From Bdellovibrionales bacterium RIFOXYD12_FULL_39_22 (lineage in GTDB: Bacteria; Bdellovibrionota; Bacteriovoracia; Bacteriovoracales; Bacteriovoracaceae): a stretch of 64,000 nt of DNA. Below, piece after piece: positions 1-6,471 of the stretch; the stretch's first letter is position 1, and the number at the start of each line of letters is the position of its first letter. The DNA lies in the NCBI GenBank assembly GCA_001770205.1, contig MEQL01000049.1, positions 1 to 64,000 on the forward strand, written 5' to 3'. Position numbers and translations under genes: made by a program. The notes beneath the pieces were generated by a model. It saw only the letters and a list, made by a program, of their open reading frames with translations, had not been told where the DNA came from and ran no database searches.

Positions 1-10
1 ATTGTAACAT
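1..10 (-). CDS. Start of a gene running off the left edge (partial)
   Basis: Minus-strand ATG at 10-8 preceded by a strong AAGGAGG ribosome-binding site. Confidence 0.4.
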
Positions 11-90
11 AAAGTATGCCTCCTTATTTGATAACTATTTTTCAAGGATGGCAGATAAATCAGACTAAATCACTGACTGCTGTGAAAGCC

Positions 91-327
91 TTACATTAAG
101 CACCGGTTGGCAATTGAACCAGCTCCTTGTTCTGCAATATATTGGCACAAATCGAGACCATATATGGAATAATACCCAGAGTTTACTATTTGATCGCATT
201 CATTTGCGGTACTAGAGAAGCTCGTCCTTCCCACTTCGTCGCAGACATTTTGAGGAGTGAGGGAGTATGCAAACGAAAGATTACTAAATACAGTACTTGC
301 TAATAAAAGGACTAAAACTTGTTTCAT
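91..327 (-). CDS. Small secreted Cys-containing hypothetical protein (cassette-like gene)
   Basis: MKQVLVLLLAS..SFA signal peptide; GAGG RBS before ATG 327; about 20 bp downstream of repeat R1. Confidence 0.6.
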   Translation of the reverse strand: MKQVLVLLLASTVFSNLSFAYSLTPQNVCDEVGRTSFSSTANECDQIVNSGYYSIYGLDLCQYIAEQGAGSIANRCLM

Positions 328-348
328 AATAACCTCACTCACTTTCCT

Positions 349-471
349 AATATTAAAAATCTGGGCCATGCTCGTTATTTCTCAATCTTTGCGATCCTGC
401 TCCGAAAAGCTCATCTTTCTGCGCAAGATCTATTATCCGCCAACATTCCCGAGCACAGTCTGCTTATAACT
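349..471. repeat. 123-bp intergenic repeat R1 (att-like, central hairpin)
   Basis: AATATTAAAAATCTGGGCCATGCTCGTTATTTCTCAA...; gap-free alignment to 2598-2720 and 3258-3380. Confidence 0.9.
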
Positions 472-493
472 AGATTAAGAAGTTTAGCTCCGT

Positions 494-862
494 TTAATTT
501 TTTTGTTCTAAGTTTGGATCAATAATACACATTGAAGTTGCTTCAGCTAGTTCCGTTAATCTTTTTGAAAGTTCTTTTGCATGAATTGGCATTCTCTGTC
601 TGTACAAGTAAGCAATCTCATCAACTCGTTGAACATCCCGCGCTCCAGTAGCGTCTGCGGCTATAAATTGAGCATCTGCTGATAATGCATATAAAATTCC
701 TTCTAATTGAGACTTATAACGACTACATGTTTTAACTCTCGCGATCTGCTCTTTTCGGTCCTGTATCTGTTGATCTCCCATTTCTTTGAGATCTTGTACT
801 AAAGTGTCCGCAAAAGTTGAAACTGCAAAAAAAGTTAATAAGCCGGCAATCATTTTTCTCAT
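494..862 (-). CDS. Secreted hypothetical protein (cassette-like gene)
   Basis: MRKMIAGLLTFFAVSTFA signal peptide; AAGGAGA RBS before ATG 862. Confidence 0.7.
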   Translation of the reverse strand: MRKMIAGLLTFFAVSTFADTLVQDLKEMGDQQIQDRKEQIARVKTCSRYKSQLEGILYALSADAQFIAADATGARDVQRVDEIAYLYRQRMPIHAKELSKRLTELAEATSMCIIDPNLEQKN

Positions 863-886
863 AATTTTCTCCTTGTTCATTAATCA

Positions 887-920
887 AATATTAAAAATCT
901 GGGCCATGCCCGTTATTTCT
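887..920. repeat. Truncated repeat copy R2 (first 34 bp only)
   Basis: AATATTAAAAATCTGGGCCATGCCCGTTATTTCT matches R1 at 33/34 positions, then diverges abruptly. Confidence 0.85.
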
Positions 921-1058
921 AAAGCAGGCGAAACCTCCATCTGGACACGCATTATTATATAAGCTCAGTGTAGTGCAAAGTTGAGTGCAATAATATAGTA
1001 ACTATTAGTAGCTGTAATTTTTTACCATCCTGTCAATTTTTTTTACATTTAATAAAAC

Positions 1059-1224
1059 TAAGAAGGCGCAAGGACGAAACCATAACGGGATTGAGCATGG
1101 ATATGGCTCCAACTCGGATCTAATTTGTTCGGAGATCTACTCCAAGGACGCAGAATTGTTCTCAAGATTTATTTTTGAAGACGGATAGCAAAGTTTGCAT
1201 TTTTCTAGATTGCCTACCTTCTTA
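1059..1224 (+). ncRNA. Candidate IS110 bridge/seek RNA
   Basis: Non-coding region upstream of transposase closed by TAAGAAGG (1059-1066) / CCTTCTTA (1217-1224), with internal hairpins. Confidence 0.5.
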
Positions 1225-1248
1225 TTAACTTTTTTGGGGAGGTATTTA

Positions 1249-2510
1249 ATGGAGTCAATTCACAATGCAGTCGCTGGTGTAGATGTTCACCAATAAAAAC
1301 TAACCATCACAACATTAGTTGGAAAAGATTCCGGCAAAATCACCAAAACAACGTGGGGAGTGCGCCACTTACACCGATGATTTAGTTGCTGCTGGCAAAA
1401 AAATTAAATCACTCGGTGTTACTGAAGTTGCGATGGAGAGCTCCGGTGTCTACTGGAAACCTGTTTTCAATGTCTGGTCCAAGATGGGGATTAACATCAC
1501 CCTGGGTAATGCCTATCACATCAAAAATGTTCCTGGCAGGAAAACTGACATTAAAGACAGTGAATGGCTTGCTCAACTCCATCGCAATGGACTCATCAGG
1601 CCCTTTATATCCCGGCAGAAGAGTTTAGGAAATTACGAGATCTGACTCGCCATCGAGGGAATCTTGAAAAGGACATTATTGATGTTAAAAACAGGATTCA
1701 AAGGACCTTGGAGGATGGGAATATTAAACTGAAGTCAGCTATCTCAAACGTCTTTGGTGTCGCTGGTAGAAAAGTTTTAAAGGCCATCATAGAGGGGGAA
1801 AAAGATCCTGATGTTTTGGCCGGCCTTGTTGACACTAATGTAAAAGCGAAAAAGGAGGTGATTAAAAAATCGCTAAATCATACTATAGATGAGACAAATT
1901 TATTTCTTCTGAACAATATGTACAGTCAATTACTATACCTTGAACATCTTGCACAAGAGTTGGGAAAAAAAATGACGATATGATGACACCCTATAACGAG
2001 TTTATTAAAAAGTTAGATAAAATACCCGGAATCGATAAAATTACAGCACAAATCATTATTGCTGAGGGCACAACGGATATGAAAAAATTTAAAGACGCAA
2101 AGTCATTTGCGGCCTGGGCGGGAGTGGCATCTGGGAACCATGAATCTGCTGGTAAAAAAAAGAGGGCCAAAGCACGCAAAGGTAATCCAGCGTTAAAGAA
2201 GGCACTTGTTATTGCTGCCAATGGTGCAGTAAAAAAGAAAAACACATTCTACAATGCCAAGTATTTCCGACTAACTATGAAAACGGGACCAGCAAACAAG
2301 GCAAAAGTCGCTATTGCAAACAGAATGGCCATGGCGATCTACTGTATATTATCCAAAAATAACGTACGATATCATGAGATGGGTACTGCAAGGGTGGTGG
2401 ATGAGGGGAAAAAAATTAAAAATCTTATCAATCAGCTAAAATCTTTAGGGGTTGAAGTAAACCATTGTACAAAAGAAAAAATTGAAGCTGTGGTAAAAGT
2501 CTCGGCATAA
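1249..2510 (+). pseudogene. IS110-family DEDD recombinase/transposase pseudogene
   Basis: GGAGG RBS, ATG 1249; motifs GVDVH, VAMESSGVYW, GRKTDIKDSEWLA, IPGI, ESAGK, AIANRM; in-frame TAA 1294-1296 and three frameshifts (about 1356, 1605, 1970). Confidence 0.92.
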
Positions 2511-2597
2511 GTTGGTTTAAAAATTTTATAATAATTCAGTCTTTGATTTAAAGACCAGGGGAGGATTTTGCTCTTTGAAAAAGTTCGCTTATATAGC

Positions 2598-2720
2598 AAT
2601 AGTAAAAATCTGGGCCGCGCCCGTTATGTCTCAACTTTTTTGGTCTTGCTCAGAAAAGCTTATCTTTCTGCGCAAGAACTATTATCCGCCAATGTTACCA
2701 AGCACAAGTCACTTACAATC
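2598..2720. repeat. 123-bp repeat R3
   Basis: Aligns without gaps to R1/R4; abuts stop codon at 2721. Confidence 0.9.
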
Positions 2721-3209
2721 TTAGTTAATGGCATCTAATACTTTGTTTACGGATTCTTCAATTGAATTATATGTGTTATCAATTTTTTTTGATTTCATTT
2801 CATCATACAAGTTTGAATTAATAATACTATCTAGAAAAATTTCATCTTCTATACCACGCTGACGAAGCCTTTTTTTCAACTCTTCTTCCAAGCATGTTAT
2901 AGTTACTATTACTAATTTATAATCAATATCCTTAAGTTTGCTGAGAAATCTTTTAAAAACTACTTCTTTGTCAATTACCCAACTAAAAATAACATTTTGA
3001 TAAAAAGTATTATTCAGATAGTTTCGAAGAAGGAATAGAGTATTACTTTCAATCATATTAATATTTTCATCAGTAAAGCATATAGGATTCATCATCCAGC
3101 ACCAGTCAGCATCAAGCCAGATGCTTTTGTCCATTTTTTTATAAAGGACTTTGCATATCGATGATTTTCCTACGGCCATATTGCCATTTATTATAATCAG
3201 TTTTTTCAT
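2721..3209 (-). CDS. P-loop nucleotide kinase / AAA-like ATPase (cassette-like gene)
   Basis: Walker A GNMAVGKS at N-terminus, WLDADW motif, kinase-lid LKKRLRQR; very AT-rich. Confidence 0.85.
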   Translation of the reverse strand: MKKLIIINGNMAVGKSSICKVLYKKMDKSIWLDADWCWMMNPICFTDENINMIESNTLFLLRNYLNNTFYQNVIFSWVIDKEVVFKRFLSKLKDIDYKLVIVTITCLEEELKKRLRQRGIEDEIFLDSIINSNLYDEMKSKKIDNTYNSIEESVNKVLDAIN

Positions 3210-3257
3210 TTTAATTATGTAGCCTTTGTGAAGCAGATAGAGATTTTCTCTAAACCT

Positions 3258-3380
3258 AATATTAAAAATCTAGGTCATGCCCATTATTTCTCAACTATCG
3301 TGATCTTGCTCAGAAAAGCCCGCCTTTCCGCGCCAGATTCATTATCTGCCAACGCTCCCATTCACAGTTCACTCATTAAT
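3258..3380. repeat. 123-bp repeat R4
   Basis: Aligns without gaps to R1/R3; abuts stop codon at 3381. Confidence 0.9.
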
Positions 3381-3776
3381 CTAGTATTTGCTGATTCTCG
3401 AAATTTCAACATAATGATCTCCAGAAAGAGTTGTTTGAACTAATCCATTTGAAGAAATATCTAAAATTTCTGTTTTCATTTGATCAAACGCATAATTTTG
3501 AATAACAGTTTCTCCAATTTTAAAAGTTACTCTATTAAAAAACCTAAACTCGCTATAGCTATCAACGCTCTTGTATTTTTTTATTCTCGAAATTTCAACA
3601 TAATGATCTCCAGAAAGAGTTGTTTGAACTAATCCACTTGAAGAAATATCTAAAATTTCTGTTTTCATTTGATCAAACGCATAATTTTGAATAACAGTTT
3701 CTCCAATTTTGAAATCTGCGCCCAATGTCAGATAACTTGTTACAATCAGCAATAATATAAAAAGCTGCTTTCTCAT
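3381..3776 (-). CDS. Secreted hypothetical protein with two near-identical 44-aa repeats (cassette-like gene)
   Basis: MRKQLFILLLIVTSYLTLGA signal peptide, AAGGGG RBS; FKIGETVIQNYAF...VEISRI occurs twice. Confidence 0.75.
   Translation of the reverse strand: MRKQLFILLLIVTSYLTLGADFKIGETVIQNYAFDQMKTEILDISSSGLVQTTLSGDHYVEISRIKKYKSVDSYSEFRFFNRVTFKIGETVIQNYAFDQMKTEILDISSNGLVQTTLSGDHYVEISRISKY
3394..3714. repeat. 132-bp intragenic direct repeat (3394-3525 and 3583-3714)
   Basis: Two mismatches seen by eye; 189-bp period. Confidence 0.9.
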
Positions 3777-4003
3777 AAATGATCCCCTTATTTCAACCAA
3801 ATAATTAATATTCAAAACACACTCATAAATCGTCTACGTTAGTGAGTGTAGCATGAGGGCAGAGGCCAAATGTTGGAAAAAAAAATTTATGTCCACAATT
3901 ACATACTCTGTACAAGAATTGTGCAGGCATAACATCTTGGAATCTTACCAACCCAGCAGATCATAACTTATTAATCTGAACACTCGGCTATCACGAATGG
4001 CCT

Positions 4004-4394
4004 GTGTATCAACTGACTGCAACACTCGACGCCTTGGGCCTTATAATGGCCTCGCGGCGATCAATTCATAGAACTTTTTTCTATCCTTATTCCTTGTATT
4101 TTGGCACTTACGAAGACATTATTCAGACATTCGCATCATGGAGAATTTTAGACCTGACCACCCTTTTGAAAAAAGTTGACTACAATTATTCACACCAGGC
4201 ATTTGCAAAAAGATTGAAGAAGCTAGAGGATTCTGGTTACCTTTCATCTGTCTATTTTTAAAACTATCGCAAGTATCTATCGCAAGTATCTTTTTTTGAC
4301 AGAGAAAGGATTGTCAAAGGCCGGACTAACTAAAGCGTGGGCGGGGAACAAGAAGATTATTCAAAAACATTTGCTAATCTTAAAGATGCGATAA
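4004..4394 (+). pseudogene. Degenerate winged-helix protein (replication-relaxation-like), mobile-element remnant
   Basis: KRLKKLEDSGYL..*NYRKYLFLTEKGL recoverable after an in-frame TAA (4259-4261) and a 13-bp tandem duplication (4264-4289). Confidence 0.45.
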
Positions 4395-4588
4395 CGTGGC
4401 AGGCCAATTTTCACCCTTCACTTCCTGATGTAGTTGTAAAAAATATCTGCAACCGTGGCCTGCTTGAGCAGCTGGCCATTAATTTCATGGTATAGATTCC
4501 TGCGAAAACATGTTTTTTTAATAGCTTTAATTTTTTTTACTCATGGAATGTAGATAAAACAAGGAAAATTATCGTATAGGTAGATTTT

Positions 4589-5415
4589 TCAACCATTAAG
4601 ATAATTAAGCCCCATCAGCAGCGCCTCTAATTTTTGAATTATTAGTTTCTCCTCTTCCTCACTACTTGTTCTAGAGAGGACGATCATACTTCGCGCCAAT
4701 TTTTCCTTGCGTATAGAATCACTCAAAATATTTTTTATTAGTTGCACATGATCTTCGTTGGTAAAATTTTTAATTCGAAGGCCCATTAACGCAACTACCG
4801 CCGAACTAGATTCGTGGTCGAATTTTTCTAAAATATCAATATGATTATCTAATAAACATTCGTAGGCGTCAGGATCTATTTTTTCGTAGTTGGAAATGAT
4901 ATAGTTTATATCTTGAGCATCTCTTTGCCGGGAGGGATTTTCGTTCCAGGAGACAATTTTTAAGGCCACCAGCATTTCCGGAGTAACTACTTTTACTTCG
5001 CTTTTTCCAAACCTTATAACTTTCGAACTATTCAAGGCTTGTTGATAACCAGTTACGGTTACAATCGAGTCATAAAAGGGCGGCCATGATACCTGGCCAT
5101 TTTACTCGACGCCCCCAAAGGGCAAAAGATCAAAAGGAGTACCATTATAGTAATATCTCGACTTGTTTTTTTCGCTGTTACCCGGCCTGATCTTGGAGTC
5201 TTGTCAAAATAAGTCGCGCAGTAATTCTAATGTATCCCAAGAGTCAATCAAAAGCGCAAAATCTACATCAGAGGTTTTTCTAGGAGAGAGCGCGCTAATC
5301 CTGCTTCTTGGGAGATTATATCTCGTGCCATTGCCCCTACGATGAAAAAATCAATGTTTAGATATTTAAAGTGTTTGCCAAGTCCTTCGACAATATTTTC
5401 AAAATCAGTATTCAT
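4589..5415 (-). pseudogene. Nucleotidyltransferase toxin (AbiEii-like) pseudogene
   Basis: Reconstructed MNTDF..FFIVGAMARD..RKTSDVDF..DLLPFGG..LKIVSW..RDAQD; frameshift in GA run about 5284-5290, stops TGA 5204-5206 and TAA 5102-5104. Confidence 0.85.
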
Positions 5416-6442
5416 ATTTGGCAAGTGTGGTTTTAATTTGCTTTTTTAGAATTTCGGCAGTTTCAAGATTTCTATCAATTCCCGAATTAAGTAGTTCACA
5501 ATAGGTAATAAAATCAGGAATGGTGCCATCGTTGTTATTTAATTCAGTCGGCCAAAAACATTTGGAGATTTTTATCTGGCCTTTAGGATCTTTTTTTAAG
5601 CGAAGTATTTTTAATAAAGAAGAGATATTATCCTCATATGTATAAATATTAAAAAATTCTGGCGTCAGGTAATCCGTGCGGATTGCGGCGGCCGCTTCAC
5701 CCCCCCAGTATGAATCTGTGGTAATGGATTTTTTTTTCCATGATCCAAAAAAGCTATTATCAAGAGGAGAAAATTTCCCCAAGAGGTTATTCTTTTTTGT
5801 CTCAAAATCTAAAAGAGAAATTCGACATCTTGCGGCCAGATCTTCAAAACGGCCAAAATAGCGCTGTCTGTTTTTGGAAATAATTAATTTATAACTATAA
5901 AAATTTTTCAACGCTTTATTAACAGCCCCCAATGACAGATCAAGCTTTTCTGCCAGATCTCTCTGGGTAAAGGTCAACGCCTCTGGGCGACAGGCCAAAT
6001 ATAGCATTAATTTAATGTTGCTTTCTGCGCGCAAACCCTTTTGCTTAATTGGGTTGTCGATCGTGAGCGTTTTGCTTTTGGAAAGAAGTAGATTTAGAGG
6101 AAGAAACAATTTTTTGTCAATTTCATAAAAACCAATCCCTTGTTCTTTTAAACTATCTTCAATTTTTTGTTCAATAGAGTATGCTACTAAAATGCTAATC
6201 CCTTCAAAATTTTTGGCAATCTCTATAAAACGTTTGAGTTGAGTTATGTGAGAAACTTGTTCCTTGGTCTCAATTAAGATTGGAACTTCGATTGTTCCAA
6301 CTTGGAGAGACAAAAAGAAATCTGGAGAGTAGTTGATTCCGATAGGAACCTTTCCATGATTTTCGACTATTTTCAATCCCAGCTCTTCATCAAAAAGGTG
6401 TTCAATTTTTGCCAGGTACTGTTTTTCTAGCTTATTGTCCAT
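5405..6442 (-). CDS. Type IV toxin-antitoxin AbiEi-family antitoxin / transcriptional regulator
   Basis: HTH (TQRDLAEKLDLSLGAVNKAL), YWGGEAAA motif; overlaps the toxin start; upstream TTG start at 6454 possible. Confidence 0.8.
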   Translation of the reverse strand: MDNKLEKQYLAKIEHLFDEELGLKIVENHGKVPIGINYSPDFFLSLQVGTIEVPILIETKEQVSHITQLKRFIEIAKNFEGISILVAYSIEQKIEDSLKEQGIGFYEIDKKLFLPLNLLLSKSKTLTIDNPIKQKGLRAESNIKLMLYLACRPEALTFTQRDLAEKLDLSLGAVNKALKNFYSYKLIISKNRQRYFGRFEDLAARCRISLLDFETKKNNLLGKFSPLDNSFFGSWKKKSITTDSYWGGEAAAAIRTDYLTPEFFNIYTYEDNISSLLKILRLKKDPKGQIKISKCFWPTELNNNDGTIPDFITYCELLNSGIDRNLETAEILKKQIKTTLAKYEY

Positions 6443-6471
6443 TTTTTGCTCCAATCACCTATATAATACCC

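Follow-up and report, generated by a model that had tools for sequence, protein, structure and literature searches.

Bdellovibrionales bacterium RIFOXYD12_FULL_39_22 carries short arrays of unrelated genes that are separated by a conserved 123-nt repeat, named R here, and preceded by a second conserved element, the head. One of these arrays lies at the left end of the stretch of DNA that we analysed, the 64,000 nt at positions 1 to 64,000 of contig MEQL01000049.1 (assembly GCA_001770205.1), hereafter the window. We favour, with a probability of about 40%, the interpretation that the arrays are built by recombination at a boundary shared by the 3' ends of R and of the head, with units of gene plus R stacked behind a head. 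The combination of an oriented site, a head, mobile islands and an insertion sequence (IS) that is site-specific for the same boundary favours recombination at this point. The layout resembles that of integrons, but the arrays are not an integron.

Results

An array of unrelated genes separated by a repeat

Read in the direction of its genes, the window array consists of the head, gene4, R4, gene3, R3, an IS, gene2, R1 and gene1 (Table 1). The initial annotation, made from the sequence alone, had proposed a gap-free 123-nt repeat alternating with four short co-oriented genes on the minus strand, three of secreted type and one kinase. The repeat is real (349-471, 2598-2720 and 3258-3380, 78-83% identity over 109-123 nt), and the open reading frames (ORFs) and Pfam matches agree with the description of the genes. 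Visual inspection and a crude heuristic gave genes 1, 2 and 4 signal-peptide-like N-termini. The spacing of 20-50 bp given between repeat and start codon also holds: R1, R2 and R4 end 21, 24 and 48 nt before the ATG codons at 327, 862 and 3209. The annotation further placed R3 and R4 directly after the stop codons of the genes upstream. The contact was borne out (the stops of gene3, 2721-2723, and of gene4, 3381-3383, touch R3 and R4), but the stop codon belongs to the repeat itself. Nearly every copy of R begins with (A)CTAG or CTAA, followed by TAA or TGA in the other frames when read in gene orientation, and it does so even where the upstream ORF stopped earlier. Hence, the touching stop codon is part of R. 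As for the copy described as a truncated R2, an R-like piece of 38 nt is present at 887-924, but it may be the left end of the IS instead.

Copies of R in the genome

The draft assembly comprises 62 contigs (3.95 Mb, 39.2% GC, 94.6% complete), in which ORFs were called crudely as the longest non-overlapping frames of at least 50 aa. A profile built from three copies of R matched the window copies with E-values of 1e-35 to 1e-36 and gave 31 matches genome-wide. A profile of 23 copies gave 32 matches at E<1e-7; 24 of these scored at least 98 bits, and 20 of the 24 spanned the profile from position 15 or earlier to position 126 or later. The whole-genome search showed that the copies are clustered, not scattered (20 of the 32 lie within 2 kb of another), and strictly oriented. 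The gene-site-gene geometry noted initially for the window holds throughout the genome. The upstream neighbour was co-oriented with R in 25 of 28 cases, and in 18 of these 25 its stop codon lay at most 16 nt from the start of R. The downstream neighbour was co-oriented in 22 of 30 cases.

The proteins encoded next to R are unrelated to one another, with two similar pairs at E<1e-4 among 50, and the segments between repeats share no nucleotide similarity, the IS, the head and a few repeats excepted. We therefore rejected tandem gene duplication as the origin of the arrays. Signal-peptide-like starts were found in 28 of the 50 neighbours by a crude heuristic that yields some false positives. The arrays have a GC content of 33-37%, against 39.2% for the genome, and toxin-antitoxin pairs occur in and beside them. 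Solo copies of R were found on contigs C39, C45 and C19.

Anatomy of R

R extends from 5' ACTAGGATTGTAAG to 3' TTTTTAATATT. Its 3' boundary falls between GGGCATGGCCCAGATTTTTAATA and TT, and the next start codon follows after ~16 to 252 nt, as measured with the crude ORF calls. In the alignment of 23 copies, the first third falls into at least four or five sequence types, and the middle into two types that are linked to the 5' type. An imperfect hairpin, GATCTTGCGCAG...CTGAGCAAGATC or TGCTCAG...CTGAGCA, is retained in both middle types, and the last third hardly varies (TTGAGAAATAACGGGCATGGCCCAGATTTTTAATATT). About one third of the copies have AGGTTnnTGA after the AATATT of R, and some are alike up to the ribosome-binding site (RBS) and the ATG.

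The consensus fold (RNAalifold) is a central hairpin of nine pairs with -2.2 kcal/mol, and single-strand DNA folds of three copies, on both strands, were no better than those of shuffled sequences (z from -0.4 to -1.8). R had been described as not palindromic from end to end, which agrees with the folds, where the central hairpin is the only one. The lack of terminal RYYYAAC and GTTRRRY boxes was likewise evident in the 23-copy alignment, none standing at the ends. A scan of positions 1-6000 of the window with Rfam 15 gave no match near the gathering score, the best being a chance match to a long non-coding RNA (21.7 bits versus 48). We rejected antisense coding by R: the frame is open in 15 of the 23 copies, and the variability is flat across codon positions (8.2/7.4/8.3). 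Sigma-54, FliA and extracytoplasmic function (ECF) promoter motifs, judged by eye, do not fit R in their spacings.

The head element

The head, missed in the first reading, immediately precedes the first gene of an array. It is ~135 nt long, and seven full copies and one partial copy occur in the genome, including that of the window (~3795-3945, with weaker similarity to 4106). The seven heads each stand before a different first gene or before an R. The exceptions to the order of head then gene are on contig C36, where the head precedes an IS, and on contig C13, where it directly precedes an R and leaves what amounts to an "empty" site. The conservation of the head stops at GAATATT(AATTATT), which is similar to GATTTTTAATATT in R. 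Its end, TTTTGAATATT, is found before seven arrays and resembles the end of R, TTTTTAATATT; in the window, the core ends with ACACTCA-N17-TGAGTGTGTTTTGAATATTAATTATT. Two paralogous islands, on C13 and C19, share 78-88% identity as far as the AATAT of the head and are unrelated past it. The head holds TTTACA-17-CATAAA and a 7-bp hairpin followed by GTTTTG, and from its sequence it looks like a promoter plus leader.

A 20-nt segment, CATCAGTTCTGGGACAATAT, which is a variant of the 5' part of R, was found in both orientations 3-10 nt from the AATAT(T) end of head or R (C54:19439-19489, C36:3950-4000 and C13:51043-51075). Since AATATT is palindromic, these segments may trace inversions at this point.

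Islands carrying the arrays

The arrays lie on or beside islands that integrate at tRNA genes and encode an integrase, an excisionase and a 250-aa protein that we call p250. The C13 island runs from tRNA-Ser through the genes for a 427-aa tyrosine integrase (PF00589), an excisionase-like protein (HTH_17) and p250 to the head and the array. The same integrase module follows a tRNA-Arg on C45, where a 19-nt copy of the tRNA 3' end, 9.4 kb away, bounds the island. This island contains one R, Fic and MazEF genes, a secreted-type gene of 865 aa and, next to a remnant of the head, the gene of an ECF sigma factor. In the window, the head is adjoined by remnants of p250 (4004-4261) and the integrase (4337-4495), both decayed, and an AbiEii/AbiEi pair follows. 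The genes divergent from the arrays are p250, xis and int of a tRNA-targeting island, and not IntI.

The p250 family has no Pfam match; its members on C13 (49411-50163) and C19 (39468-40220) stand beside the integrase and excisionase genes of tRNA islands. The family alignment has an invariant motif, HD...PDA...ExELTQK. According to its predicted fold (pLDDT 82), which matches the structures of FokI, PaqCI, MspJI and MarR-type proteins, p250 is a winged helix joined to a restriction-endonuclease-like PD-(D/E)xK fold. The C45 sigma factor is of ECF type (Sigma70_r2 and r4_2) and is encoded with a 186-aa neighbour at C45:19165-20194. It could regulate transcription driven by the head.

An IS110-family element at the boundary of R

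The IS between the R2-like piece and R3 matches the Pfam families DEDD_Tnp_IS110 and Transposase_20, and its transposase is broken. In the window the AATA(G/T)T end of R3 meets the right end of the IS, TATATAGCAA, and on C34 this right end adjoins the AATATT end of R. At both loci the IS sits exactly between the end of R and the leader of the gene that follows; at C34/C16, a bridging metagenome contig shows the insertion to be clean, with TT duplicated at the two junctions. Of three right-end junctions seen, two fall between the AATA and the TT of R, and the third (C36) lies elsewhere. The IS110-family (DEDD) element is the only recombinase that we saw acting at the exact boundary of R and head.

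The R2-like 38 nt directly adjoin the left end of the IS, where the left terminus is expected, and 35 of the 38 are identical to the last 38 nt of R. A second subfamily of the IS has a shortened, degenerate version of this left end (CCATG.CC...TTAAGG). Both observations lead us to read R2 as probably a part of the IS, whose left end, judging from these sequences, may mimic its insertion site. The first bases of R1 (CTAGTTATAAGCAGAC) resemble the right terminus of the IS (GCTATATAAGCGAAC), a similarity that is weak for the consensus R.

Other recombinases

The initial annotation had advised looking for a co-occurring recombinase or reverse transcriptase. The genome gave neither: no recombinase was linked to R, and no reverse transcriptase was found. 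We discarded the Y1_Tnp genes (C57 and C59), which are on contigs without R at E<1e-7, with one weak match (E 0.013) on C57, 44 kb away. None of the three serine recombinases adjoins R, the nearest (C16) lying 2 kb beyond the end of the array that spans C34 and C16. The 12 PF00589 matches in the genome are island or Xer-type integrases.

R and head in other genomes and sequence collections

By BLAST, R had no match in 40 relatives. The search was extended family-wide to 236 other genomes, with the three best candidates per genome scored. It gave one real R, in a genome of another genus (G073), and no head. The G073 copy is solo, 86-92% identical to the copies described here, lacks the last few bases at the 3' end, and lies near a tRNA-Arg among flanking genes that are 64-76% identical to those of this genome. 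Five other matches of 22-32 nt (E 0.001-0.008) were taken as chance. Exact-pattern scans gave one match to R in contigs of species genomes, unrelated on inspection, and none to R or head in viral contigs. A metagenome scan found 16 R loci, 15 of them 100% identical to this genome; the sixteenth is an unassembled piece of the same organism carrying a further R. In the assembled contigs of four DNA sequencing runs there was no joint specific to the locus, and the joints listed came from other repeat copies. The portions of the literature available to us hold nothing on such repeats in predatory bacteria.

The kinase encoded by gene3 has a homologue in one of the 236 relatives, G024 (85% identity in amino acids, ~89% in nucleotides). 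The homologous block starts ~25 nt ahead of the ATG and reaches ~20 nt beyond the stop codon. This locus (L113, G024:C11:109271-109990) lies in a variable region of another genus, and a contig of the G024 kinase type occurs at higher depth in one sequencing run. We did not accept its flanks as R: visual inspection suggests a faint likeness to R in ~20-30 nt on either side, but the profile gave E>0.7, and the downstream 121 nt are unique in G024. The locus may represent a decayed cassette context.

Other features of the window and of the array neighbourhoods

The features of the array are collected in Table 1. Within gene4, 189 nt are duplicated in tandem (3380-3525 and 3569-3714, 96% identical), which gives two 63-aa repeats in a small secreted-type protein. 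Beside the decayed island module, positions 4589-6454 encode an AbiEii-like nucleotidyltransferase (148 aa, shorter than the Pfam model) and an AbiEi antitoxin-like regulator (349 aa). No R occurs in the window beyond gene1, where the sequence enters a multi-copy element. This element makes up the left end of the contig (window 1-90; also L035:5655-5757), includes a gene starting with MLQLNLENLKK, and lies at the ends of many other contigs; it is likely to be a further IS at which the assembly breaks. A further repeat of ~390 nt, 78-84% identical between copies, was found near R arrays (C28:2056-2439, C5:9690-10230 and C36:4135-4522).

Table 1. Features of the array at the left end of the window and of the adjoining island remnants.
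Feature	Positions	Strand	Description
gene1	91..327	-	78 aa, secreted-type, N-terminus MKQVLVLLLASTVFSNLSFA; last gene of the array; no Pfam family
R1	349..475	-	Full copy including the 5' CTAG; profile E 2e-36
gene2	494..862	-	122 aa, secreted-type; sub-threshold Pfam match only
R2-like piece	887..924	-	38 nt corresponding to R positions 86-123; truncated R or R-like left terminus of the IS
IS110-family element	925..2597	+	Transposase in three frames (1319-1645, 1564-1983, 1980-2510)
R3	2598..2725	-	Full copy; its CTAA supplies the stop of gene3
gene3	2721..3209	-	162-aa P-loop kinase, Pfam AAA_18 (1.8e-12)
R4	3258..3385	-	Full copy; its CTAG supplies the stop of gene4
gene4	3381..3776	-	131 aa, secreted-type; first gene of the array
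Array head	3795..4106	-	Conserved core ~3795-3945
p250 remnant	4004..4261	+	N-terminal ~85 aa; tblastn 33% over 82 aa; divergent from the array
Integrase remnant	4337..4495	+	N-terminal ~50 aa; intact copy on C13 matched by tblastn (71% over 45 aa); divergent from the array

Discussion

How the arrays may be built

In the mechanism that we propose, R would be the boundary module of a lineage-specific cassette arrangement that is integron-like and yet not an integron. An array would consist of two to four unrelated, horizontally acquired genes, many of them with signal peptides, behind a common head of ~135 nt. The (A)CTAG of R and its further stops would close any ORF running into the repeat. 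The arrays would be cargo of, or neighbours to, small islands that integrate at tRNA genes. Units of leader, gene and R would be gained, lost and swapped at the 3' boundary of head and R, between TTTT[G/T]AATA and TT, with head and R acting as a pair comparable to attI and attC. Homologous exchange through the 123-nt repeats might offer an extra route. The initial annotation had suggested a cassette system with a different site and recombinase. The geometry, the unrelated genes, the attI-like head and the IS at the boundary agree with this suggestion; the linked recombinase and the signs of mobility that it would entail did not appear.

A bolder version, which we consider rather unlikely, is that the integron principle was invented a second time and independently. 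The heads would then be capture platforms on several small tRNA islands, and cassettes of gene plus R would be exchanged between TTTTNAATA and TT by an enzyme other than IntI. The likeliest candidate for this enzyme is an RNA-guided DEDD recombinase of the IS110 type, whose own left end mimics the site. The island integrase or the nuclease with winged helix-turn-helix and PD-(D/E)xK folds could take its place.

Several results weigh against recombination at the boundary of R and head. No recombinase co-occurs specifically with R in the genome. The neighbouring island integrase is of the ordinary tRNA-targeting type with normal tRNA att sites, and the assembly holds no intact copy of an IS110-family transposase, all the copies found looking defective. 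Of 201 related genomes, 89 carry p250, frequently as more than one copy, and the p250 loci of nine relatives show no intergenic repeat of at least 45 nt like R; the head is also absent from these nine. Hence, the island backbone is common and the cargo system of head and R is not. Almost confined to one genome lineage, R and head lack comparative support. Metagenome and run contigs, which all come from the same strain, gave no alternative junction, no circle and no difference in order. The sequence shared past AATATT means that the 3' boundary of R is not sharp in every copy. Truncated copies end at profile positions 72, 87, 105, 106 and 126 and start at 26, 31, 35, 45, 49, 61 and 100; with such varied truncation points no single crossover site is visible. 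Finally, the arrays are short, with two to four genes (lower bounds, because the assembly is fragmented at exactly the R repeats), and in the window and on C41 the last gene is followed by other sequence instead of an R.

Alternative explanations

Much of the evidence on the IS can also be read in another way, with R as a small non-autonomous mobile element related to IS110 that inserts itself in one orientation into accessory intergenic DNA and brings stop codons with it, the strings of genes being older. The left terminus of the window IS (35 of 38 nt shared with the end of R) and the start of R1 (CTAGTTATAAGCAGAC, like the right terminus GCTATATAAGCGAAC) would suit such an origin, though the left end of the other subfamily is degenerate and the consensus R is only weakly similar to the right end. 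IS and R are trailed by similar flanks, A(G/A)nTTnnTGA, and R has neither terminal inverted repeats nor target-site duplications, as is the case for IS110 elements. Solo copies (C39, C45, C19 and G073) and the frequent truncated copies fit as well. However, nothing in the IS corresponds to the interior of R, no target is conserved in the upstream flank apart from the ACTAG that belongs to R, and R never follows R in tandem, the head-R pair on C13 being the one comparable case. The copies keep together in islands (20 of 32 within 2 kb of another) and are not spread over 3.9 Mb, the assembly has no intact transposase, and the head and the unrelated, patchily distributed genes are left unexplained. 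We hold this origin of R to be improbable.

R might instead act purely in the expression or insulation of island operons, as a module supplying stop, hairpin and promoter or leader, kept alike by selection and gene conversion while homologous recombination swaps the genes. The copies in the window stand 21-48 nt ahead of the following start codon, and those elsewhere, with crudely called ORFs, 16-252 nt; this spacing suits the role, as do the common types of leader and RBS after AATATT (AGGTT..TGAAT..AGGTATTATG and TTAATGAACAAGGAGAA). The 3' part of R contains TTGAGA-16-CAGATT; promoter-like matches in the region were, however, no commoner than in shuffled sequences (14 versus 14.6), and the -10 hexamer is lost in the CGAATT variants. 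The central imperfect hairpin is present in both variants, with one-sided changes that restore pairs, and a small GC hairpin with a T-run stands at the 3' end. Terminator-like structures numbered 6, against 2.5 +/- 1.5 in shuffles, three of the six being hairpins of R. Against this, the fold is weak (-2.2 kcal/mol over 9 pairs, z -0.4 to -1.8) and without an Rfam match. Neighbouring copies in one array have small 3'-end variants in common, which suggests local homogenisation, and one head remnant has an ECF sigma factor gene as its neighbour. Yet, an identity of 78-92% over 123 nt, and of 86-92% in another genus, exceeds usual regulatory need, and a pure expression module explains neither why the 5' edge of R is the upstream stop codon nor why unrelated genes stand between identical spacers. 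We regard it as somewhat unlikely. An ordinary integron, or a cluster of attC sites lacking an integron integrase (CALIN), with attC sites overlooked by eye, is far less probable still and can practically be set aside. The cassette-like geometry and the nearby toxin-antitoxin genes would suit it, and the IS110-family insertion recalls the IS1111-attC elements. The absence of IntI noted initially for the window extends to the genome, 94.6% complete, where the best of nine TIGR02249 matches reached 52.7 bits against a cut-off of 265. Moreover, the alignment has no terminal RYYYAAC or GTTRRRY boxes, the folds do not surpass those of shuffles and form no end-to-end hairpin, and R is conserved in sequence whereas attC is conserved mainly in structure.

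Comparison with known systems

The arrays share with integrons and CALINs co-oriented, short, unrelated genes, each closely trailed by a repeat of ~120 nt (the last gene excepted in the window and on C41), a distinct site heading the array, toxin-antitoxin genes, a GC content below that of the genome, and a site-specific IS110-family element in the repeat. The attC repeats of Vibrio cholerae are roughly 123-126 nt long. Unlike integrons and CALINs, the arrays keep R in its primary sequence, have no R and L boxes and no IntI, contain two to four genes at many loci on tRNA-integrating islands, and give no evidence of excision.

IS1111-attC elements and IS110 elements targeting repetitive extragenic palindromic (REP) sequences insert, like the IS described here, in one orientation at one precise spot of a multi-copy repeat; here the target is R, and the left terminus of the IS resembles the last 38 nt of that target. 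Enterobacterial repetitive intergenic consensus (ERIC) sequences, Correia elements and sequences like miniature inverted-repeat transposable elements (MITEs) resemble R in their length of ~120-130 nt, their position between genes in transcription units, their central inverted repeat and their possible effects as promoters or terminators. R differs from them in being oriented with the genes, clustered in islands and paired with a head. It is not a MITE, having no terminal inverted repeats and no target-site duplication. Nor does it correspond to REP sequences, or the bacterial interspersed mosaic elements (BIMEs) that they form, with their REP-associated tyrosine transposases (RAYTs): R is 123 nt long and not palindromic, and the Y1 genes are not flanked by it. 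The pdif modules of Acinetobacter plasmids are also gene modules bounded by repeated sites with no adjacent dedicated integrase. However, they use 28-bp XerC/D sites in alternating orientation, whereas R has 123 nt, direct orientation and no dif-like core.

Implications

Were R to prove a spacer that inserts itself, or a module for expression, it would still be unusual in supplying island operons with stop, hairpin and start signals, though of local interest. Among natural platforms that stack promoter-less genes singly behind a common promoter, integrons are, to our knowledge, the only one that is well understood. If recombination at the boundary of R and head does build the arrays, the same layout with a different site and enzyme would mean that the platform solution evolved more than once. 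It would also mean a new pair of recombination site and enzyme, possibly RNA-guided, and would suggest that predatory bacteria have a pool of secreted proteins open to exchange.

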